The notes under the pieces: generated by a model
Told to the model about the DNA's origin: nothing
The model's input: only the letters and a program-made list of their open reading frames with translations
Databases searched by the model: none
Program-made: the position numbers and the translations under genes
Shown: positions 13,101 through 54,500 of the stretch, piece by piece
Layout of the letters: every line of letters begins with the position of its first letter
How positions within the stretch are numbered: the stretch's first letter is position 1
Assembly (NCBI GenBank): GCA_048213135.1
Contig: PS015019.1
Span: 7,629 to 68,450 of the forward strand
Length of the DNA: 60,822 nt
Source: Reclinomonas americana ATCC 50394
Taxonomy: Eukaryota
Direction: 5' to 3'

Positions 13101-16100
13101 CTGTGTGTGCCGGTAGAGCGCTGCGCCGACGACTTTTCTCTGTGCAAGGAGGGTGCGCTTGAGTTCTCGGAGATGTGCGCTCTGCGACAGGCGATCAAAC
13201 GCAAACGCCCAGTCACGTCGCGCCAGAAGAGTGACTGTCACTTGTCGCTCACCCCCTTTTTCTGTCTCGCAGTTCTCGGCCGTGTACCAGCAGCGGTGGG
13301 GCGAGCAGTCGCACCTCACGGTGCGCAGTGTGGTGAGACAGCACTCGTCCACCGATCTTCTCGATTCGATCTTGGAGTTCAAGTTGCACACCCGTCCCCT
13401 CCCAGTGTGGCCTCCCGTAGCTACTTCTCACGTGATCCTTTGTCGCAGTACCTATCGTCTGGTGGTATCGCCGCTGATGGTGCTGGTCAATGCCATGCCG
13501 TCGTGGATGGACGTGACGGTGATGGCGGGTTCACCGGCTGCTCAGCATGCAGTGTACGAGAGTGCCATCGACGGCGGAGCACGTGCCGAACTGTACAGTG
13601 CCGCTGAGCAGCCACTGTTCCTTCTGGCCACACCAACCACTGGCCGCTGGCACGTGACACATCACGGCGCATGCGTATTTGATCCGCAGGGCAACAGTCT
13701 CGATTCGCGCTACACCATTGTCGACCGAGCCGGGCGCCGACTGGACGTGCTGCTGGCATACGAAGATTCCTCCACGTCACTTGTGCCACTGTGCACGCTC
13801 TATGTGAGCCATTGGATTGTGACACGATGTGACCTGCCGCTCATTGTTACGCGTGGTGGTGGTGACTTGGCGGCCGGTCAAAACGACCCGATGCATGCCA
13901 CACCAGCGGGCTGCACTGAACCGACTGCGGTGATTCCCTTTTCGTTCCACGACGCGGCACTCGGACACACGATTGCCGTCAGTATCGATGGTGGCGACTC
14001 GTTTTCGTCGCCGTTCTCCATTGATGCCATCGGGTGCGTGCGAACGAGTGGCGGAGGCACGTGGGACTGGTGATTGACATGTTTTCCCTTGCGCACAGAA
14101 CCTCTGGAATGTTGGAGTGTGAGACACATGCGGCCAAGGTGCGAGTGTCGTGCTCGGTGACCATGGCCACTGGGCTGGTGAGTGGACGGAGGGAAGAGGG
14201 AAGGGGATGAGTGAGATGGTGTGTACTCATTGATTTGGCAGTTTACACGAACGCGCTTGGTGACGCTGCGCTCTGCACACGTACTTGTGAATCAATCGAG
14301 CGGCGTTGTGCAAGTGCGACAGCAGTTTGCCGAGGAGGTGACTTTTTCGACTCGCCGACTCCTGCTTGTGTTCCAGCTCTCATGTTCCATGCTTGCACGC
14401 AGCTGGTGGTCCTCGACGGCTCCTCCCCGCAGTGCGATTTGCAGTGGATGACAGATGAGCCCACGCACCAGCTGCTGCAGTGTCGGCTGGTGGTCGACGG
14501 AGCACCACCGTTTGACTGGTTCGCCAGCAGTGTGTGAGCATACCCCTGTCACACTATGAAGTCATTCATCATGTGTGCATCGCACAGGAGCACGCCGTTT
14601 GCTGTCGACCGCTCGTCGTCCGACTTTGTGCTCAAGTTCCGCTCGCTGGCCGGTGGCGGCTACGCCATGATGCGCGTGGTGATTTATGAGTCGGCCTCCA
14701 CCACATTCATCAGCTTTGTGGATTACGACGTCAACGAACTGCGGCCGGATCTCTTGATCGAGAATGACACGAGTTCGCGTCTCTTTATTGCCGAGGAGGT
14801 ACGTGTTCTTACATGCGACAAAGTGAGTGATGACGCTCACTCGCCGCCGCCGCAACTGGTAGGGTCCGGACGCGGTGTGGTCACTGCCGCCGCACTGTCG
14901 CTTGCCTTTCTGCTTCGACCCTTCGTCGCCATCGCACAAGCTCGGTGTGTCGCTGACCGACGATCGAGCAGAGGTGGATACAGACCAGGTGCCGCAATGT
15001 GTGCGCATTACTGGCAGTGACGGAGACCCGCAACCAGCTCAGGGCGCCGCCTATGCCATCATGCTGAACCGTGGCGGGCATCGTGTGCTGGTTGTCGAGA
15101 GACACCGACGAGCACCGGTGAGTCAGTCAGTCTGCTGAGCATTCATCCTCCCCTGTGTGCTGTCACTCATGTACTCTGTGCACGAGCAGTCGCTTGACGC
15201 CTTGGCCAATCGTGCTGCCGAGGAGGAGGTGGACTCGGATGTGTATGTGTCGAGTGTGGAGTTTGCCTGCTGCCTGCCGGTTCTGCGCGTGTCACTCGTG
15301 AACCAAGTACCTCAAGTTGCATTTGCTTGCATTGCTGTTCACGACACGTCACGTATGTATACTCACATCCGCACGACTGTCGCAGGAGGTGTTACTGCTG
15401 TCGGTCAAGTCGCCGGTGTTCCAGTGGTCGTCGTCACTGCGGGCGCAGAGTGCCGAGTTCTTTGTGGCCGACATTCAGATCGACAACATGCTGTACGACT
15501 GCATCCACCCGGTGGCGCTGCGACCGTGCGCGCACTCGCTTAACCCCAATCGGCCCGTAGTGCACGCTGCCCTTGTCCGCAACATGAAAGGTGCGCGTTG
15601 GGCGGCCAGTGACCGCAGCGTGTGCGTGGGTGATGTGCATCTCAAGTGTGCGTCGCAGAATCGACGAGCAACTCGCTGGCGTTGGATTACGTCGGCTGCT
15701 CGGTACAAGAGCTCGAAGTGCGCCTGGACGAGCGCCTGCTGAATGTGGCTCTGGAGACCATTGATGCGGTGGCCAAGTCGACAGGCGATGGTGGTGTCGA
15801 TGCGCGCCTCGCAGCCGCTGATGTCGCACACGGCATCGGCGATGTTGATCTGGCCAAGTTGCGCACATGCTTTGCTCGCTGAGCCATGGAGCGCAACACT
15901 GACTTTGGTGCGCTGCTTTGTGTGAACAGCACGTTGCTCCTCACACAGCGGTGCGGGCCACTCCCTCAGCGCCCACAACGATTGTTCATTCGCGAGATGG
16001 ACATTCAGCCGCTGGCGCTGTACTTGTCGTTTGCTGGCGACATTAGTCTCTCCAGTGCCTCGAATCCACTCATCTCGCTGGCGGGCAGTTTCTTCAAAAA

Positions 16101-29447: not shown

Positions 29448-29633
29448 GCCTGCGCATCGCCGGCACGTGATATGATACTGTGAGAAGAAGAGTTCACCGA
29501 GTGGCCCCACAGTAAAACGATCAACGAACGCTCCTCTTGCCTGTTGCCGGTCGATTTTTTCTCACTCATTTCTTCACTATCTCTCTTCTCTTCCCCCCCA
29601 CATCCACTCCATTCGCCGCCCACCATTTCTACC

Positions 29634-32600
29634 TCACGTGCCTGAGGGCCATGCCGGCGACATGAAGCCTGGCGACTCGAGGTCGTCTCGCACAAACGGT
29701 GGCGCCGGCGACGCCAGTGGCAGTCGATTGGTCGCGCTCTGTTGACTGCGAATGTCGCGCAGCAGTGCCTTGGCCTCCTCCTTTTCCTGCAGATGGTCGA
29801 CGACATTGAGAGTATGACTCAGGTGGCGCATCGCATTGCAGCACGCAACTGGCGCTCCAGTGTCCAGCAGCTGCATGCAGTAGCTGATCGCCTCGTCGTT
29901 CTCACCGCACATGTGGTAGTACTGGGCCAGGAACATGAGAATCGGTGGCTCGACCGCGGCGTCACCCTGCAGTCGTCTCTGCACGAACACCAGCTTTGTG
30001 TACCAGTGCGCAGCCGTGTTCAAGTCATTCAGCTGCCGATACAACGCCGCTTGCTTGGCCAGCGCCACGGGATCGTACATGCGCAGCCAATTGTCGGGTT
30101 TCGAGTCGTCCAGCCCGTCCTCTTCGCGCGCTGCCCCCGTTGCTCCCCCAGCGGCTGCGCTGGCAGCGCCCGCAGTCGGCGACTCCTTGCCTCCTGCGTC
30201 CTCATTGGCCGACGAATCCACTCCCACAGCTGGCGTTGTGCGCGACGTGGACGAGGCCGACGGCGCGGCCGCCGCAGACGGTTGCGACGGTAGCGCCATC
30301 ACCACGTGCGATACCGGATGGGCGCGCCGATAGCATTCCAACGCCTCGCCGAATCGACGCAATTCCTCGTAGCAGCCGCCGAGCGCACACCACATGCGCG
30401 AGTCGTCTGGTCTCAACGTGGTAGCCTTGCGGTAGTAGTACAGGGCATACAGCGGCATGTGCAGCAGCTCGTACGTCTGACCCAGGCCGTACCAGGCGCG
30501 GTAGTCCCGCACGTTGATGTCTGTGGGAGAGTGCACAGAGTGAGCAAGGGAGACACGAGCTGGCCTTGATGCACACACACACATACCAACAGCCTTGCGA
30601 TACACGTAGATGGCGGCACCAATGTTCTTCAGCTCAATGTACTCGTGGCCCATCAGTGTCCACGCCGACACGTAGCTGCAGAAAATCTGTGAGACTCAAC
30701 CAACCCATTGCGTCACCAAACAAAAAGGAGAGACGCAACGTGGGATCCATTTGCAGCGCGCGGCGCAAGTACACCAGTGCCTTCTGGTGTTGTCTCCGCA
30801 GCGAGTAGTAGTTGCCGACCACACAGCACGTCTCCGGGCGGTACTTGTTCGCGGCGTGACACGCGTGCGCCAGTCGCGCTAGGGCACTGCGTTCCTCGCG
30901 CACGTAAAGAATGTTCGAATACATGTCCATGAGCTCCACGGCGAACGGATCGCGAATCACCAACTCCTCAAAGCACTCGTTGCTGGCCTCAAAATCTGCG
31001 GCACAGCAGCATGAGTCACGGGAAACGGAAGCATTGGCGTGATGCGCACTCACCTCGCAAAATCGAGTGCGCCGTCGCCCGTGGCCTCAACAACGTCAGC
31101 GCCGATGTCGCCAACAACTGCGTCTCCGCCGACGGTGGACCTTCCTCCGGCGCCATGAGCTGTTGCACGGCCAGCAACGCATCGCGCGGCTGCTGCAGCT
31201 CGACGCTCAGGTGCGCGATAAAATACTGAAATGCCCAGTGCTGGCGCACGGCACCGAAATCCAGTGTGGCGAACTGTGCGACGCGCGACAATGAGAGGTG
31301 GGAAACAGAGCTGGCGCACGGGAGAGCAACGCACATGCACGCGCTGTTGCGACACGAGTGTCGACAGCTCGACAAACGCCGACCACAAACAAGGATACAT
31401 TTGCAGCGCCGTGCACAGGCAGCGCGCGGCTCGTTCGTACTCGGCCAGGCGCGATAGTACAACGCCGTACAGGTACGAGTTGAAAGCGTCCAAGTCGCCG
31501 GCTGCGAGATGCGCGTGAGTGCTGCCCATCTCTCAGTCCATTCTCTCTCACACACACTCTCCAAAACCTTTCGCATCCGAGTCCAAATCATTGGCCAGCT
31601 CCTGCAACTCTCGATTCGGCTCGTGCACGCCAGCGAGGACGCCTGAGTGACGCTCTGTTTGCTCCTGTCGAGCACGCTCCTCGCCAGCCAAGTAGCGCGA
31701 GTAGCGGCGCAGGAAGCGAGCCTGGAAGGAGGAGAAGTGATTGGCAAGGAAGAGAGAAAGAGCAAGAGAAGAAGAAGGAGAAGAAGAAGGAGAAGGTGAA
31801 GAAAGAAGAGAAGAAGAAGAAGAATGAGGAGGAGAAGAAGGAGAAGAATACGAGGAGAGAGGAGAGTAGACAAGAGAAGAGAGGAAAGAGAGGGAGACAG
31901 GTGAGAAGAGCCGTGAGTGACAAACAAGAGAGAGGGAGAGAGGAGGATGAGGAGGAGGAGGAGGAGAAGAAGAAGAAGAAGAAGAAGAAGAAGAAGAAGA
32001 AGAAGAAGAAGAAGAAGAAGACGAAGAGCTGTGAGTGACAAACAAGAGAGAGGGAGAGAGAGGAAGAAGAAGAGACAAGAGAGTAAGTGAGATGCGGAAA
32101 GAAGAGAAGAAAGAAGAGGATACGGAGAGAAGAGAAGAGAGGGAGACAGGTGAGAGGAGCCGTGAGTGACAAACAAGAGAGGGAGAGACAAGAGAAAGAG
32201 AGAAAGAGAGAGAGAGTGAGGAAAGAGTAGAGACAAGAGAGAAATAAGAGTCACAGATCCCTCCCTTCAGTACGCACTCACCTTCTGTGAACGACACTGG
32301 CGGAGACTATATGAACAGCGACGCAGTTCTGCGCCCTCAAAGTACGACAAGGCCAGCGCGTATGTGTCATAATCCGCCCAGAAATCACTCGCCTGTTGCA
32401 CCAGTGAGCATTCTCTCTCTCTCTCACACACACACTGTGTCTCGCAACTTCCTCTTGCGCGACAGGTGCAGCAGCAGATGGTCGACATGAGGGAAACTGT
32501 GTGCTCACATCGTGCAGCACTTGCACCGCCCTGTGTGTGTTTGAGTGTGTGGTTGTTCAAACTCTCACTGTTTTGTCTCTCTCTCTCTTTCACGCACCAA

Positions 32601-32686
32601 CGCGCAGCATTGCGCAGACCGCGTGTGCCACAGTCGTGCGCAGCGTGACGCAGTTGTGTGGACCACTCCTGCGCGCGCTCTTCCAT
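29634..32686 (-). CDS. CDC23: Anaphase-promoting complex subunit 8 / CDC23 (TPR protein), multi-exon
   Basis: [102 protein letters not shown]. Confidence 0.96.
31745..32245. repeat. GA-rich tract with three gtgagtgacaaacaagagag modules in a CDC23 intron
   Basis: Modules at about 31913, 32031 and 32162, embedded in (GAA)n/(GGA)n. Confidence 0.9.
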
Positions 32687-33376
32687 CACTGAGTGAGGTT
32701 TTGTGGACGTTTTGTGAATGCGCGGGAAATGTGTGGGACAACTCACATACAACAGCAGGTTGCGTGGACGCCTACGGAAGCAGTAGTTGAGGGAGACGAA
32801 GTGGAGTAGGTGTTGGCGACGAGCTGAGTTGCGCGCAGAGAGAGAGAGGAGTCCAACCAACAACGTCGCACAATGCGACGTCGCGAAGATCCCGATATTC
32901 GCAGTCATGTCGAGGTGCAGCCGGTCAGCAACGGTGCGAGCCAGTGCACGTGCTGATCGTCCGTGCTCAGCCAAGCAGCGCTCCGCGTATATACATGTGG
33001 TTATTTCGATCGCGAAGTTGCAATTGGGCCGCGCTCGCCAGCTGCTCAACCGCAACAAACAATCGAAGCCCAACCACGAACCCAATTCACATACACAGCC
33101 TCTGCATCCATCCCTCTCCTCCGTATCACACAGGCCCACACGCACAGAGACCATCCAGCTGATCATGATCATGAGCGTTCGGATTCTCAAAAAACTCCAA
33201 TAACAACGCCTGCAGCCGCCCTTCTCGTGCACAGAGCTTCTCCAGGACACACTTTTACACCATACCCACCGGTCCGCGTACACAGCAGCAACATACACCA
33301 GCGCATCCACGCAAAAACGTCACAGGACAACCGTACTCTGTCTCTCTCCACCCACGCACCTTTTGCGACAGGAGAG

Positions 33377-45662: not shown

Positions 45663-48529
45663 ATGGACGATCGGCCATTCTCGCTGGCGTCCTCATCGCC
45701 AGCGCTCTCCATGAGCACCTCCTCCTCCGCATCACCCACCGAATCATCGTCGTCTTCGTCATCATCGCCCGTGCGTGGCGATCGAACCAACAGTGCGACT
45801 CTCATCCATTCACCTTTTCTCCATTGGTGATGTGTGTAACCTCTTTGTGCGTGTGTCTGTGTGTGCACAGGCGCTGCACCGCCGCATCGCCGTCGTCGAG
45901 ATTGGCGACGTCGCGGTCATCATCCACAATGTTGCGTATGGATGCAGTCGCTCGTTCCCTCTCTCTCTCTCACACACACACACGTTGACACTGACACACT
46001 TGTGCAGCATCGCCTCCGAGGGCGACACTGCGATCTGCGGTCGCGCAAGTCGCCGCCGACTTTGATTTCTCCTCGGCGGCACCCGCGGTTTGTGTTCCCT
46101 TTCCCTTCCCCTTTCATGCGCTCTGCGACTGACTGCATGCATGCATGCATCGTCAACGCGTAGGCCGGCGACTCGCGGTTCGTGAATGCACACTCTTGCA
46201 CGATCAAGGACGTGCATGCCTGACTGTATGTGCTTGCAGTCGACAACAGGAGCAGAGTTCTACCCTTCGCCAGCAGGTGTTCTCCTTGTCGGAGCGAGTG
46301 GGTCAGCTGCAAGACAAGGTGCCGTGTGAGTGACACTCTTCGCATGCTTTATAATCACTAATATCGTTAGCTGCACAAAAAGCTGGAGAAGGCGGACTCG
46401 TTGGTGGTGTATCATCGGCGGGAGGTGACTTCGCTGCGTGACGCACTGGAGGAGGCATTGGAGACGACGCGCAAGCTGGCATATGAGAACAAGTACGTAG
46501 TGTTGCTTGACATCTGTCATTTCTCTCTCTCTCTCTTGCTGAACTCCATTGCGCAGTCATCTGAACAAGGCACTGACGACGGCCGACGAGAAGCGGCACA
46601 CCATGGAGAGGAAGACTCGCGGCACTCTGGAAAAGACGCGGCAGTGTTTGCTTCGAGTTGCGCCCGTCAGTAAGCGCACACAAATGCTCGTTTGTCTCAC
46701 ATCGTCAGCGTCGCAGATGGAAAAGGACACCACACAACGCGATCAGGGCATCCGGCGCCTCACCAGTGTCATTTTGAATGCGGTGAAGACACTGGAGAGT
46801 GAGATTCACACGGGGCACGACAGACGCGCCGGTGGCGGTACTGCTGCCGCTGTTGTCATCGGCGACCCGCATCGACACTTGCTGACTGTTCGTCGAGCCG
46901 TCAAGTCGCTACAACAGCTGCTCACTGGCAGTGATGCTGGCGGCGGCGGTGGTGGTGCAGAGCAAGAGGTGCGCTGCTGAGCACTCCACTGCACGTGTAC
47001 ATTTTTTCACTGAACACAGAAGCGTATCACAGCTGCACACCGACTCGGCTGGCGTGTTGTCTCTCGAATTGCAACAGATGCAGCAGGAGCGTGCACAGCT
47101 GCGTGCCGCGCTTTGTAGGCGAGAGAGTGTGTGTGTGTGCTGTCTCCGTTGCTCATCGAACTCTACACAGACTGCGTCAGTCGCTGCGAGAGCGCGACAC
47201 GCTGCTTGCACAACTCTCGCGACAGAACGAGGAGTTTGCCACGCAAAACAACCTGCTGAAGGCGCAACTCGTGGAGGCGTCATCCTTGCAGCAGCGACTG
47301 CAGAGTGTGGTGCACGAGGCGGAGGAGCAGCTGACCAGCGAGCGACAGGCCTCCATGCAAGCTGCGACGTCGTGTGACCAGGTGGAGTGCTGCGATTTTT
47401 GCACGTGTTTGTCACATGCGCACTCACGCATTTGCGGTCACAGCTGCAAGCGGCTCTCAATGTGGAGCGCCAACGCACTGCGCACCTTGAGCAGCGTCTT
47501 GGACAGGCAGCGGAGCACTCGCGCATGGCTCGACTGATTCCGCGCTATCGAGACGCCGTCACAAAAGGTGCGCGCACACGTTCTTCCGTCATGCACGCCC
47601 CTCGAGTCTGCTCACTTTCTCACTCTCTCCCACCACCATTCTTCCTCGCAGTGCACCGACTCTGGCAGCAGGCGTTGCGACAAGGCCAAGCTTGTGCACA
47701 CGAATGCGACACGTTGCGCGGCGAGGTCACTGCTCTGCAACAGGCGTGCGAGCATGCACTGGCCGAGAAGGATGCGCTATCGCAGTCGATGCATACCGCC
47801 TCGTTGCTCGAGGCCGATGTGGCGCAGCTGCGCGAGACAGTGCGGTCGTTAGACATGGCGCTGGAGGATGCTCGCCGCGACCTGCAGCACGCACTGCAGC
47901 GAGAACAACGCGCACAGGCCACTGTGCACCTGCATGAGACCACCATTCGAGAGCTGCGCCAGATGTTGGCAAACGAGCGGCACCGGCGTGATGCAGCCGC
48001 CTTTGCGTCTCCATCGCCACCTCTTGCTGTGCAGCATGTGGCGCTGGGTCGTCCACGAGCGGAACCGCACCCACGATCGGCTGTCTCCCCCCAGCGACGA
48101 GGCAGCCAGGGGACACGAGAAGCTCCTGTAGGCAGTGTTGCTGACGATGTTGTTTTCGTCGGTGGTGATGAGGATGGAAACGACGGCGACGATCTGCTGG
48201 CACTGCCACCGGTATCGGAGTTGGAGGAGGAGCTGCGAGTGTTGCTCCAGCGGACTCCGCCACAGGCGCCACCACCGCCACCACCACCACCACCGTCGGC
48301 ATCGATGTATCGACCGACTGCTGCCAGTAACGTCATGGGTGGCATGCCGCCACCATCGCCACATTCGGGCGGCGTCTTACGACAGGAGATTCAGCACCTC
48401 GACGACGAAATAGCCCATTTGCAACAGTCGCTCCTCGAATGCGCCACGCCCAGCTCAACCGACATTGACGATGAGGCAGCGCTCCGGCGTGAGAGTGGTG
48501 GCAGTGGTTGGCGCAATGCACCTCAATAA
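45663..48529 (+). CDS. Long coiled-coil protein of unknown function, multi-exon
   Basis: Ser-rich N-terminus, many heptad-rich exons (REVTSLRDALEEALETTRKL, LRQSLRERDTLLAQLSRQNEE, LEADVAQLRETVRSL) and a C-terminal LRQEIQHLDDEIAHLQQSL. Confidence 0.7.
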
Positions 48530-48590
48530 TACATCAATACTAAACAAACAAATGTCACCATTTTTTTACTACACATGCGGCATTGAGCAT

Positions 48591-51500
48591 TCACTTCCTT
48601 CGCCAGTGTGGCGTGCAGAACGCGTTACTGCAGTGAGTGATCATGAACCCCGTGGTGCCACTGCGGTAGCCCATGACTGGCATCTGATCCAGTCCAACGG
48701 CAATGGCCACACGATCGCCCTGCAGTGCGCCGACGAGTGAGGCGGAGTGTGAAGTGCTAATCGGCAACAAGAGACAACTGACCAAGTCCGTAGACATGTC
48801 GACAAGGCCGCTGTCGACCACAATAGCTGTCATGGTAGTGCACGACACCGACGAGCAGTGTGCCTGGAGAGCGCGGTGGTAAGCGATTATTGACTTTTCG
48901 ACAACAGCATTATAACCGTCATACTCACCGTCTTCACGACTTTGTTGCCGCTCAGGAGGTGCTGGAACGCCATAATTACGTAGCCGTCGAGACCAAGCGT
49001 GGCCGACACACTGCCGATGGCCTCAAACCCAACTGCACACAGGAAATATGTCATTAAAAGGACAAAAAGAGACGGGAAAGATGTAATGCAGCGAGAAACG
49101 AGAATGGATATCTCTCTCTCTCTCTCCCTCTTACCTCCGCCAGTGGTCACATCTGCTGTTGAGCAATCCTGTGCCTTGCAGTGCACCACCATCAACAACC
49201 CCGGCGACGTGTCGTCGTTCCGACACGCCATGAACGGGAACCCGTCGACACCAACGACCAAATTCACCGCCGCACTACGCGGTAAATGTCAACACGCCAC
49301 ACACACACGGACTACGAACAGGAGTGACACCTGCAGACGCACCCGTAGGATGTAGCCGACGATGTCACCTTTTGCGTTGTCGGCGCGGTCGACATGTCAA
49401 TAGCGCTGAAAGTGCCGAAATACAGCGCATTGTCACTGCCCTGGTAGGCGAAAATAATAAAGCCTGTCACTCCTTGCGTCATGGAAAATACACCTGCGAC
49501 GAGGACGGCAATCGCGACAGTGAGATAAAACGAATACTGGCGGTGCCGCGCCAACGGGGCACTCACCTGGCGAGACATTGTTAATTGTGTACGTGTAGTC
49601 GGGCGCCAACGTGCACAGAGTTTCTTTGCAATGCCTGATAATCAATGAGCCGCTCTGTAACAATGCAGCCACCACGGGTAAGCCGTCGGCGCCCATGGTA
49701 ATTTGCGTGTACTGTCGCCACACAGCGTAGCGTGGTTAGTCAAACAGTTGGCCGTTCACGCAAGAGACACAAGGCGCCGTACGCACTACAACTGTTCCAC
49801 CGAGGCTGAAGTGCGCGGGTGGTGTATCGATACCCTGACAGAGCACATTGCGACAATGGCCAATGGCTAGTTCGCCACCACGCGAGTATGCCACGAGGCC
49901 AAACGTGTCTGGTCCAACTGTCATACTCGTGGCAAAGCCGTAGTCTGACAGGCACGGTCAGGCTACAGAGCATACAAGCAGAATGAGCAAAGGAAGAACG
50001 CAACTAGAGGCGCCGCCACTGGCCTGATCGAGAAGCCAGGCGCGTGTGATACTGCAACCCGTGTCGAAGCAGTGCACAAGGATCAAGGCGTCCAGGGACG
50101 CGGAGCGCATCGGGAACAACGGCTTGCCGTCTGTGGCAGTAATACCATACATTTCGGCACCAAGATCCGTTGTTGTCAGTGTCGGGGGATCCTTGGCGAC
50201 CTGCGCACATTGGGAAGTAGAGGATGATGAGCATGTGACGAGGGTGAAGAATGACAGCAATCACAACGCAACTCCTGTTGAATCGAGTTCGTTGATGGTG
50301 ACTGGCGTCAGCGCCGGATACACGGGCAAGCGAGTCTGTCGGAAGCCAGGGTTGCCGGATACGGAAGCGAAAATGATACCGCCCACTGACATGTCGCGGT
50401 CGACAAACAGAGATCCTGCGGCACACACGGGGACAGCGTAGTCAGCGGTGTGAAAGATGGACTTGGGTGGGCACACAGAGTACACGCACCTTGAATGTTG
50501 AAATGTTGATCGGTCTGGATGTTGGAGGCGTCGAGGGCCTTCAGTTGTACCTGGTTGACGCCGGGTGTGCCAAACTTGATGCCCTCCAGACTCTCAATCA
50601 CGAGATTTTCTGCACACATACTTCAGTCAGCGCCCTCCCCCGCCACCGTGGTGTTCTGTGCCTCAAGACGCAACCTTCCAGCACGGTGGTGCCCTGCACG
50701 CGCAGGTTACCGTTGAGTCGCAAGTCGTTGACGGTGAAGCCACTGTCAATGGTGATTGTCTTGGGCGCGGAACGCCAGAGGGCGGGTGCATTTTGATCCA
50801 GTTGATCGCCGCCGATGTAGACCTTACCGGCGGAACCATTGGCATTGACCAAGCTCACCGTACCTGTGCAATCAGCGTGTCAGCAGAAGAACAAGCTCTC
50901 CCTGGGTGGGTGCAATCGCGCGTGCCACACTACCAGATAATGTCGTGTCACCATTGACCGTCAAGTCTTTGCCGATAAAGAGACTACCGTCAATGCGCTG
51001 TGATGCTGATATATCTAACACGCCGTCGGAACCCATGCCAATACGTAGTTGCAAATCGGCACCGAGGTACATGCTTGAGTTGACCAGCGTAACGTCGCCT
51101 GCATGCGATAACGCGATAAGTGACGTGATATGACTGGAGAGAGAGGCAAAACAGGAATAACAATGGCGACACGGTATCGCACCCGCGCAGCACGATGAAG
51201 AGAGGCACTCTCCTTGTTCCCAGCAACGCACCTTGGAAGTATGCTACTTGCGAAACGTGCAGTCCAGAGTTGAACGTGACGGTTCCCGTCGTGATATCCA
51301 TGTTGCCTGTGCTTGGCTTGATGTTGATGGTGTGTGTGGTGGAAGAGGAACCGGTGCCAGCGACGACCCACACCAAATCTCCATCCTGTCGCAGACATCG
51401 TCAATACAAATACCACCACTGCCATGCACGTTGTTGTTGCTTTCAACCGTACCTTGTTGACTGTCATCTTGAACTGGCCAGAGGGATTGGCCATGGAGAA

Positions 51501-54500
51501 CTCGGCCGTGGACTGCGCGCCTGTCGATCGGACAGAGAGAGTAGAATTGCCACCATCTGCAGTGAAACGAAAAAAGTGACGCGTGAGTGCGCACGCAACA
51601 AAGGGAACGAGTCTGCGAGTCCACTCGTTGCGCAACTGGGACTGAGCGGATTGGCCAACACGCGGAACTCGGCATTTCCAGAGCCCAACGGTTGCAGCTG
51701 CACAGCACCACGTAAGCGCATGCTACAAACAGTGGCAAGTAGACGTGATCGCACAACAAGCAAACCGTCCACTGCCGAGAAAAGAATGTGGCCGCCAACG
51801 GATCCCACTGCATGAGCGTCGTTGTCGTTGTAGATCCACCCACTGGCGTGGTCTCGCGAATCATTTTGAAAGTCGACCCGAGGCCTTGCAGGTAGTGCTT
51901 GCTATTCGCACTGGCCATCACCAACGAGGCCGGGAACGTGCCAGACGCCGCCGACTGCACCAGAACATTCGCCGCCTGCGTCCGTGACTGAATGGTAATG
52001 TCCATATTCGCACCAACGACGTTTGTTATCTGTGCGAAAAAGGGATGAGCAAGGAGGAGTAGATGAATTTGCGTGCTTCTCTCCCCCCTCACTGACAAGA
52101 GAGCGACAAAGAATGAGGCTCCACCCTCTTCCTTTTCTCCACCCATTTCTCTCTCTCCTTTCGCTGATACAGAATCGTACCGAGAAATCAGTGGCCGTCA
52201 CCACCACGGATCGTTGTGGGTCGCCTGTTGAGCTGACCGATTCGGTCACATCAAAGAAGCTCTGTAAAAACTGCGACTCTTTGTTGTAGTAGCGCATGGA
52301 GAACGTGCTGCCTTTTGCCGTCAGCTCAAAGGCATTGTTGCCGGAGGCCAAGCGGAGACCGGCACTAATGGCACAGAAGGCCGCAGTGAGTGGCACGGGG
52401 GGAGAGAGAGTGGGGAATCGTGCAAGCAACTCACCGCGCGGTGGGATTCTCTGCTTGCACAAAAATGCTGGAGGCACCCGTACGACTGGCTATCGTGGCC
52501 GTCAGCGGCTCGTCACGTGCGGTTGCAATCTGGAAACTACGACTGCGCATAACCACGTCGCCAGTCTCGCGAATCTCCATCACCTTGCCGGTGATACCGA
52601 GCCCGCTGGTGGAGTTGCGGGAGATGGAAAATCCACCAGTGTTCGACACACCCATGGCGTACGATACGTTGGCGCTCTCCAGGCGCAGCGAGCTGGTATG
52701 ATCCGGTGCACTGATAATCTGCAGCCGACGAATCGACAATCAGCACGATGACACCATAATGTTGCGCCTTACACACACGTGTACGCAACTCTCATTTCTG
52801 CATCGCCATTTACCGACACCAGCGCCGACGTCTGCGTGTCCTCTGACGAGATCAACAGACGCTGCGCGGTGAAGAGACCCTCTGTGCGCAGACCACGCGC
52901 CGAGAAATCGCCACCAGTGGAGAACGAGCCGTCGCGTCGAATTTGCAGGAGAAGAAAGTTGTCGCGCGACACAATAAAGGATCCGCTCCGGTTCTCTAGC
53001 ACAAGCGAGTCGCCGTCTGCAGACAGAGAAACGGTTGGATAATTGTGACCACAAGAAGAGATGAACAGGATGAGAACACACAGAGACACTTATGCTTCTT
53101 ACACCCACCGTACTCGAGACTGCCATCCTCTCGCACTGTACGATTGGCGTTCTCTTGCCGCAGGTACAGCTTGCCATCCAAAGAGCCCTCGCCAAAAATG
53201 TTGACATCGTTGTCCACAAGCACCATGCCTCCCTCAATGGTCAAACGCGTATTCGGCAGCGGAGTGAGGTCCTCCTCGCCCGTGTCGTCGGTCGGATGAG
53301 TTGTGTTGGTGCTGTTGGTGCCGGTGGCCGCTCGCAAATCGTACGCATCCAACTCAGCATCGTACGGTGCTGCATGCGGTGAGTAGGCCACAGCGGCGCG
53401 CTCATACTCGAAGCGGTTGCCCTGCGCCTCCATGAGTGAGTGGAATAGAAAGTCGACTAGAAAGCGTCAACCAACAAGCAATGTGTACCCGATGGTGGAA
53501 TTGATGCTTGGCAGGCGCCGTGCGCATTCGCAACGCGTTCGCGGCAGTGTCCACGGGAGCAGGCACTGCTGTAGTGCCAGTGCTGCCTGAGGAGAGCAAG
53601 GACCGACGACCGGCTCGTCCACCGGTCGGGAACAGTGGAACAGAGCGGCTTGTCGTTGTCGTAGTATCTGTGCGGCAGCAGAAAATACAAGTCAAAAACA
53701 TGAGGAGCAGAAACACTCTGGGGGTAAAACAACAACAACATATTCGCAACTCTTTGTCGCAAAGCTGCCTGTGAATTCGTGTCGTATTCTCATGCCGGGT
53801 GTGAACTCGCCGGTGGTGGAGTAGAGACCAAACTGTATATTCTGCGTGGTTCGATTCGCCTGCCGTATGTCGTTGACCATCGTGGTGATGCGCATGCTGG
53901 CGCCGTTCTTTGTGCGGTCCACAATCTGCGCGCGAGTTGAAGACGGGAGGCGGGACGAATCAGTGATGAGGAGGGCATCACTCACTGCACAGACACACGA
54001 CGTGCTCACCTCCAGCGTGTGCCGGGGAGTGTGTGCATTGATACCGACAAGGCCGTCGCGGGTGACAGTCAACACGGAACCAAAGGTCATCGAGCCGGCA
54101 AATGAAAACACCTCGCCGCCGACCATTGCAAAACCAATCCACGTCAGCATCGGAATGAGCAGCAACAGCGTCAAGATCATGAACGACAGCATGTAAATCT
54201 GCACAGGCACATAGATGCGTTGTGAGTGCGCACGAGCTAAGATGCGCGGATAAATGAAAAGAGAGAGAGAGCGCACCATGAACTGCTTCCACGACTCGGG
54301 GACACGCATGACGCGGCCCTTGGTGGTGCGTCCCTGCGTGAGGCGCTCATCCGTGCCCTTGAGGCGCACAAATGTCTTGCGCTCATCCTCTTCCGGAATC
54401 TCCACTCCGACAACGTCGTAGGCGGAGTAAGGGCGGCCCTGCAGGTACGAATGAATTCCACGGTGAGGATAGAGAGAAAATCACCGAGCCTGGTCGTGTG

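Follow-up and report, generated by a model that had tools for sequence, protein, structure and literature searches.

The window analyzed here, a stretch of 60,822 nucleotides from Reclinomonas americana ATCC 50394 (GenBank assembly GCA_048213135.1, contig PS015019.1, positions 7,629 to 68,450 of the forward strand), carries on its minus strand a gene whose 3' part encodes a C-terminal domain of seven repeats, hereafter the head, and sequence comparison supports the identification of this domain as a diverged, intron-split eukaryotic variant of an uncharacterized prokaryotic family of propeller heads. The head is predicted to occupy eight exons between window positions 50200 and 48591, separated by seven GT..AG introns of 60 to 102 nucleotides (nt). 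These were obtained by enumerating introns that keep the reading frame, with two junctions read directly in the sequence; the joined coding sequence of 1104 nt is in frame, has its sole stop codon at its end and encodes 367 amino acids. Each repeat would correspond to one blade of the propeller, and scores in the list, apart from that of the spliced blade 6, are those of a family hidden Markov model (HMM) described below. The exons and the introns that precede them are as follows:

50272-50201, minus strand: intron before head exon 1, 72 nt
50005..50200, minus strand: head exon 1, N-terminal closing ("Velcro") strand and blade 1, H-C-x4-C kept, 16.0 bits, E 4.1e-4
50004-49945, minus strand: intron before head exon 2, 60 nt, GTTGCG..CAG, phase 1, junction read in the sequence
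49787..49944, minus strand: head exon 2, blade 2, 33.8 bits, also picked by a coordinate-only exon finder
49786-49712, minus strand: intron before head exon 3, 75 nt, GTGCGT..CAG, phase 0
49567..49711, minus strand: head exon 3, blade 3, 35.9 bits, found by enumeration and by the exon finder
49566-49494, minus strand: intron before head exon 4, 73 nt, GTGAGT..CAG, phase 1
49343..49493, minus strand: head exon 4, degenerate blade 4, H-C-x4-C and Asp lost, 4.0 bits, not significant
49342-49275, minus strand: intron before head exon 5, 68 nt, GTGCGT..TAG, phase 2
49135..49274, minus strand: head exon 5, blade 5, 36.5 bits, found by enumeration and by the exon finder
49134-49033, minus strand: intron before head exon 6, 102 nt, GTAAGA..CAG, phase 1, in-frame
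48929..49032, minus strand: head exon 6, first half of blade 6, 33-37 bits for the spliced blade
48928-48864, minus strand: intron before head exon 7, 65 nt, GTGAGT..CAG, phase 0, the sole head intron within a blade
48783..48863, minus strand: head exon 7, second half of blade 6 from A-H-C onward, 19.5 bits
48782-48720, minus strand: intron before head exon 8, 63 nt, GTCAGT..CAG, phase 0, junction read in the sequence
48591..48719, minus strand: head exon 8, blade 7, the family terminal motif and the stop codon (48593-48591)

A first-pass annotation made from the DNA had quoted peptides from the seven repeats and assigned the domain to 48591-50190. All of the quoted peptides are present in translations of minus-strand open reading frames (ORFs) at that location, and the domain ends at the stop codon and extends 10 nt further upstream than proposed, to 50200, where its start coincides exactly with an exon boundary. 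The beginning of exon 1 would, by analogy with strand E8-12 of the structural model of a family member, supply the closing strand. The upstream junction of exon 6 rests on homology because the exon finder, which uses dynamic programming on coordinates, read through the in-frame intron at that point, and for the head as a whole the homology-supported manual exon model was preferred to the exon finder. The proposal that introns fall mostly between repeats also stands, since six of the seven junctions lie within 6 amino acids of a blade boundary, a placement equaled in 424 of 1,000,000 random intron placements. An unusual donor, GTTGCGT, is common to three introns of the gene (50674-50610, 50272-50201, and 50004-49945).

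When the exon pieces are aligned, the window repeats follow the pattern x-S/T-h-T-h-G-x-D-G-x-P-h-h-x-Y...L-h-h-x-H-C-x4-C, in which h is a hydrophobic residue, and the spliced head contains seven blade envelopes starting at residues 15, 69, 118, 167, 218, 270, and 327. H-C-x4-C is kept in six of the seven blades and lost in blade 4; the Asp of G-x-D-G is likewise kept in six, with the full G-x-D-G present in three (blades 3, 5, and 6). To avoid circularity, an independent repeat HMM was built from 600 repeats drawn exclusively from the proteins of other organisms and was run on all 1258 six-frame ORFs of the window. It matched six of the seven blades, with E-values of 1.6e-10 for blade 5, 2.5e-10 for blade 3, 1.1e-9 for blade 2, and 4.7e-9 for blade 7 (32-37 bits), 3.3e-5 for the second half of blade 6, and the value listed above for blade 1. 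The first half of blade 6 was marginal by itself (5.2 bits), and a full-blade score was reached only once the two halves were spliced, which supports the intron inside this blade. Blade 4 is as degenerate as had been claimed, reaching no more than 5.6 bits against any blade-specific HMM. Blade 7 scored 45.8 bits against the blade-7-specific HMM and 24-30 bits against those of the other six blades; the window head thus shares the special terminal blade of the family and not the repeat alone. Positional orthology was not shown for window blades 1-6, because the blades of the family are too similar to each other. Outside the matched blades, none of the 1258 window ORFs fell below an E-value of 0.03, and no second copy of the propeller was found among them.

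The first-pass annotation had pointed to secreted bacterial proteins with similar repeats and a similar terminus, and this family exists. A profile of the window's own repeats, searched against 1.84 billion representative proteins, retrieved 3407 proteins at E<=1e-3, of which 2192 also passed E<=1e-10 and 622 passed E<=1e-30; among the best 150 of the 3407 matches, most had exactly 7 matched stretches and the others had 14 or about 21. The family consensus, SI.IG.DG.P.ISY..LKVAHC....C with the ending HCSN..C.P(Y/F).RRR, agrees with the one given there, and the Cys columns do not vary in alignments of the family. The resemblance at the terminus is close: a Thermoanaerobaculia protein ends HCSNAFCTPYVRRR and the window protein ends HCSNAFCTPHWRRK, followed by the stop codon. 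The repeat block lies within 10 amino acids of the C-terminus in 115 of 152 family proteins, and the strict end motif C-x-P-(Y/F/H)-x-R-R-R is found in 64 of these 152 and in 49 of 79 heads taken from genomic loci. The alignment of the spliced head with family proteins runs from end to end (residues 1-366) at 28-32% identity; the best E-value is 2.75e-39, and in a 390-aa family protein the aligned residues are 21-390.

A scan of one genome per prokaryotic species, run with two peptide patterns derived from a 6-row alignment, gave 457 pattern matches, 408 of them confirmed, and 80 loci were kept. The bacterial loci belong to Nitrospirota (37), Chloroflexota (20), Acidobacteriota (10), Actinomycetota (5), Pseudomonadota (1), and no named phylum (3), and the archaeal ones belong to Thermoplasmatota (2) and Methanobacteriota (2), so that five bacterial and two archaeal named phyla are covered. 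Within Nitrospirota a match was found in 6 of 101 sampled genomes, and the family is therefore patchy within that phylum. Full prokaryotic ORFs begin with a signal peptide or an N-terminal anchor, continue into a collagen G-X-Y or other fibrous stalk, and end in the head; Pfam Collagen was matched in 10 of 77 N-extended members. The atlas neighbors of a family member were bacterial and archaeal clusters only, and the atlas returned no usable match for the window piece.

No Pfam or NCBIfam model covers the repeat: the window exons gave 0 relevant Pfam families at E<=1 and none in NCBIfam, and no propeller family in Pfam was matched by family members. The only curated model that touches the family is DUF1936 (PF09151, 34 positions), which at E<=1e-5 matched the hairpin immediately ahead of H-C in 12 of 77 members. 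Of each blade it takes in about 14 residues; two proteins exceed its 25-bit cut-off, no single stretch doing so by itself, and the window exons do not match it. Searches of the literature turned up no account of the H-C-x4-C propeller family. The clusters of 20 family proteins, when looked up, consisted of metagenomic records with no informative names, and a metagenome scan with blade 2 produced 387 pattern matches, none of which was confirmed.

The number of blades that the first-pass annotation had predicted was borne out by a structural model of one family member (P0042), computed with AlphaFold2 from a 29-row alignment (predicted local distance difference test 93.8, predicted template modeling score 0.92). 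It contains 28 strands in seven four-stranded blades, the first strand closing the last blade. In a Foldseek search of this model against the PDB, ranks 1-22 were all Photorhabdus lectins (PLL, PLL2-5, and PHL), which are seven-bladed and matched with template modeling scores of 0.73-0.80, E ~1e-14, and probability 1.00 over about 340 of 369 residues at 12-14% identity; seven-bladed glycoside hydrolases and putative sialidases came next. Viral structures matched as generic propellers, at 10-16% identity. At the level of sequence, the family profile detected no PLL/PHL chain at E<=1 among all PDB sequences and no other solved structure. The collinear alignment of seven blades, the kept N-terminal closing strand, and the terminal motif suggest that the window head is itself a closed seven-bladed propeller.

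The window head and the prokaryotic family (for example, P0042, P0095, and L015) have in common seven blades of about 50 amino acids, H-C-x4-C and the Asp of G-x-D-G-x-P (each in six of the window blades), a head at the extreme C-terminus that ends in C-x-P-(Y/H)-x-R-R-(R/K), and a hydrophobic leader and long stalk in front of it. The window differs in its eukaryotic host, its seven spliceosomal introns, its one degenerate blade, and the mutual divergence of its blades, which are on average 22.9% identical to each other, compared with a median of 60.7% and a minimum of 34.9% in prokaryotic heads. Its stalk is neither collagen-like nor similar to that of any member. Blades inside a single prokaryotic protein are very alike, up to 81.8% identical (loci L002-L081 and proteins P0001-P0152), which suggests continuing homogenization or recent re-amplification of blades.

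The remainder of the gene and the other genes that bear on the origin of the head are as follows:

50273..54192, minus strand: stalk, about 13 exons and about 900 amino acids rich in Gly, Ser, Thr, Asn, and Val, approximate, from the exon finder
46300-48530, plus strand: convergent neighbor gene with short GT..AG introns, product a coiled-coil protein containing a poly-proline tract, no Pfam family
29600-33320, minus strand: APC8/Cdc23 gene with tetratricopeptide repeats (TPR), several exons
13117-14073, plus strand: VPS13 piece, matching the VPS13 adaptor-binding domain at E 3.9e-5, a little above the Pfam cut-off

The whole gene would thus comprise about 20 exons and 1250-1340 amino acids. 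The exon boundaries of the stalk are provisional because the exon finder reads through, and so under-calls, in-frame introns. Immediately after a candidate start codon at 54192 comes a hydrophobic stretch of about 22 amino acids, a putative signal peptide or signal anchor, and further in-frame ATGs lie upstream (for example, at 54309) as possible starts. Stalk exons matched no Pfam or PHROG family, Pfam Collagen included, a 91-aa stalk exon found nothing in a word-indexed protein search, and a viral scan with a stalk exon gave 10 matches, none of them confirmed. The stop codon of the coiled-coil gene is about 60 nt from that of the propeller gene, and the VPS13 ORF probably represents a single exon in a large VPS13 gene broken by N gaps. 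The nearest named eukaryotic relatives of the window APC8 protein (Balamuthia, Cavenderia, Closterium, and oomycetes) are 32-61% identical, mostly in the TPR core; the best-scoring matches include amoebozoans, oomycetes, and green algae, and the closest is one Nannochloropsis protein, 76% identical over 19% of the query.

We consider it probable that the head was transferred from a prokaryote, and the direction of the transfer we infer from taxonomic distribution. Transfer is favored because the family is broad and abundant in prokaryotes, where the stalk-plus-head design is native, because no eukaryotic relative appeared in the searches that were run, and because intron phases and positions differ between blades. 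Long ago, the nuclear genome of this lineage would have received a prokaryotic gene encoding the head, or the 3' part of such a gene; the composition of the acquired sequence would then have drifted toward that of the host while the blades diverged, and no fewer than seven spliceosomal introns would have been gained in the head, six in the linkers between blades. In the resulting protein, a hydrophobic signal or anchor at the N-terminus would be followed by a long, beta-rich stalk without known relatives and by the C-terminal head of 367 amino acids. Both transfer from bacteria to protists and the later gain of introns are well documented in general. With a highest identity of 31% in the set used for phylogeny and an end branch of 7.34, against a median of 0.64, either the transfer is old or evolution was fast, and host-like composition and the 22.9% identity among blades are consistent with a head long resident in its host. 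The explanation as a whole, in which a head of prokaryotic type was transferred, gained introns, and came to form the tip of a surface fiber, we regard as likely.

Several points weigh against this explanation. The phylogeny proposed by the first-pass annotation was built, by a quick method and without a root, on 61 rows chosen from the 79 locus heads and 152 proteins; no donor clade emerged, the window head, with its end branch of 7.34, was the longest branch and could not be placed, and the identification of a donor from the tree was rejected. Because a single eukaryotic sequence stands in this unrooted tree, nesting among prokaryotes cannot be shown. The best 150 of the 3407 matches carried no taxonomy; the spread of the family was counted in the scan of prokaryotic genomes, and it is this prokaryote-based distribution, together with the single eukaryotic sequence, that holds our confidence in the transfer and in the whole explanation at the levels given. 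The APC8 distances imply that the lineage is poorly sampled in protein collections, so that close relatives carrying the propeller gene would be missed. The stalk has no similarity to the N-terminal parts of the 152 family proteins or of 81 loci, and being without a detectable prokaryotic counterpart it leaves at most the head as demonstrably of prokaryotic type. The gene model is a prediction from genomic DNA, the fold was predicted for a family member and not for the window protein, one blade of which is degenerate, and at 12-14% identity the sugar-binding residues of PLL cannot be mapped on the family, so that the lectin analogy is one of fold.

The alternative that best survives, although unlikely, is an old eukaryotic propeller family that was inherited vertically, or passed from eukaryotes to prokaryotes, and has escaped sampling; on this view the lineage acquired nothing by transfer. 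All prokaryotic members are about equally far (28-32% identity) from the window head, whose long branch resembles that of a separate deep clade; the taxon counts come from prokaryotic genomes, and relatives of the source organism are missing from protein collections. A word-indexed search with the repeat alignment, in a collection that includes NCBI, UniRef, EukProt, and MMETSP, found no eukaryotic relative of the head, as was the case for the stalk, but these blanks are weak evidence because the same search missed bacterial family members too. Against this alternative also stand the abundance of the propeller in seven named prokaryotic phyla in which it is architecturally at home, the purely bacterial or archaeal neighbors in the atlas, and the variation in intron position and phase from blade to blade, as would be expected of late gains in an intronless ancestor with seven blades.

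We think it somewhat less probable still that the fiber gene arrived whole, with stalk and head in one transfer for which a giant virus or a phage-like vector may have been the vehicle, and that the head was never fused to a stalk of the host. Prokaryotic members are built in the same order, with a signal or anchor, then a fibrous stalk, then the head at the C-terminus; propellers with a comparable fold are found in proteins of giant viruses and phages, among them a mimivirus collagen-repeat protein; and a motif resembling G-x-V-G-I-x4-P-x3-L-x-V at the start of the window stalk was also seen, by eye, in the stalk of a bacterial locus (L057). The absence of significant stalk similarity to family proteins and loci and of any Pfam or PHROG family argues against this possibility, no viral locus was confirmed, and the viral fold matches are the generic propellers mentioned above. 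A single IMG/VR contig carries the family (L001), and there the copy is N-terminal in a bacterial-looking context: at 1-1566 on the plus strand the propeller follows a signal peptide and precedes another domain, with an amidase-like ORF nearby, and the region looks like a bacterial or prophage flank, not a virion fiber.

That the gene is a decaying relic of a transferred one, neither expressed nor functional now, is very unlikely. Blade 4 lacks any family motif, the divergence of the head is extreme, and the gene model is known from DNA, all of which a relic would accommodate; against this stand eight head exons that all stay in frame, with canonical splice sites and no stop before the terminal one, an open path of about 1300 amino acids through about 20 exons, and the retention of H-C-x4-C in six of seven blades and of the exact C-terminal motif despite about 70% sequence change, which points to purifying selection.

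Bacterial contamination or an assembly chimera, which a gapped scaffold with 19 runs of N might invite, has a negligible probability, and contamination of the head region is excluded, as the first-pass annotation had argued from the introns, because stops and frame changes interrupt the domain when it is read as bacterial DNA and an open frame results only from the removal of seven canonical GT..AG introns, because blade 6 is rebuilt by splicing, because the propeller gene and its intron-bearing coiled-coil neighbor share a gap-free stretch (no N between 44910 and 56066), because GC content at third codon positions is host-like (0.66 in the head and 0.68 in the stalk, with 0.61 and 0.75 in neighboring genes), and because VPS13 and APC8/Cdc23 lie in the same window; the nearest prokaryotic sequence, moreover, is only 31% identical.

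If transfer from a prokaryote is accepted, the nearly one-blade-one-exon layout of the head would have arisen through biased gain or retention of introns in linkers and not through exon duplication. The head introns lie at non-homologous positions in the different blades and their phases, in order 1,0,1,2,1,0,0, differ. An introner-like origin was considered and rejected, since pairwise intron similarity (mean 7.84, maximum 14) was close to that of shuffled sequences (mean 7.24, standard deviation 1.64, maximum 14). Differing phases and positions, together with unrelated intron sequences, fit separate gains in an ancestor that was already seven-bladed, and on these sequence grounds the head introns cannot be taken as copies of one ancestral intron. 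The prokaryotic relatives are already seven-bladed and intronless, so that the clustering of introns at blade boundaries bears on the choice between exon shuffling and biased intron gain. By separating the blades, the introns may have ended the blade-to-blade homogenization seen in prokaryotes. We tentatively put forward, as a proposal rather less secure than the transfer itself, that this is the first recognized eukaryotic member of an unnamed prokaryotic fiber-head family, laterally captured and grafted onto a host-made stalk, with its blade-exon layout secondary and due to intron gains in linkers; if true, it would be a natural case in which correspondence between exons and modules was reached by intron gain and not by exon shuffling or duplication of exon units. 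The intron pattern bears on the old debate over exon-domain correspondence, and nothing in this case changes a major paradigm. The case as it stands is one of a prokaryotic-type domain in a protist nuclear gene, divided into eight exons within 1.6 kb and proof against contamination, and the family to which it belongs has thousands of members in bacteria and archaea, without a Pfam or NCBIfam model or a solved structure.

We suggest that the head forms the outward, multivalent tip of a surface or secreted fiber that serves in adhesion or recognition. Outside the cell, each blade would then carry one short disulfide between its H-C-x4-C cysteines, and the role of the conserved basic C-terminal tail would be structural. 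The stalk-plus-head logic of the window gene is also that of prokaryotic collagen-like proteins whose C-terminal domains are globular; the difference lies in the stalk, which in the window lacks collagen repeats (Pfam Collagen gave no match). The family, carried on stalks that are collagen-like or otherwise fibrous, is probably a prokaryotic counterpart of collectin-like recognition fibers. The closest solved folds are those of PLL and PHL (PDB 8q83, 6rg2, 5c9o, and 5mxg), which have the same seven-bladed topology as the family model. Inter-blade fucose or galactose sites with conserved Trp and polar residues characterize these lectins, and such sites serve as a model for a multivalent head. 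PLL and PHL differ from the family in being free soluble lectins without a stalk and in lacking a match to it by sequence profile. In PHL, fucose and galactose are bound in pockets that lie between the blades (PMC5584973), and the disulfide described for these lectins is one that links subunits and not a per-blade C-x4-C pair. By analogy, the window head may bind carbohydrate between its blades in the same way, and we hold this lectin-like extension of the adhesion role as somewhat less likely than not.

The prokaryotic members vary in the number and arrangement of blades. Seven repeats are present in 44 of 79 loci and 14, the largest number, in 21; the Nitrospira loci (L003, L004, L011, and L035-L081) have 14 blades in two tandem propellers, and some metagenomic family proteins have about 21 or more in chains of 3500-7200 amino acids. 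The archaeal loci from Thermoplasmata and Methanobacteriota (L016, L022, L025, and L066) have long collagen-like stalks. In archaeal members the second Cys of the last blade is replaced by Gly, the ending being ...HCSNVFGIPYVRYR, and one archaeon carries at least three family paralogues on a single contig.

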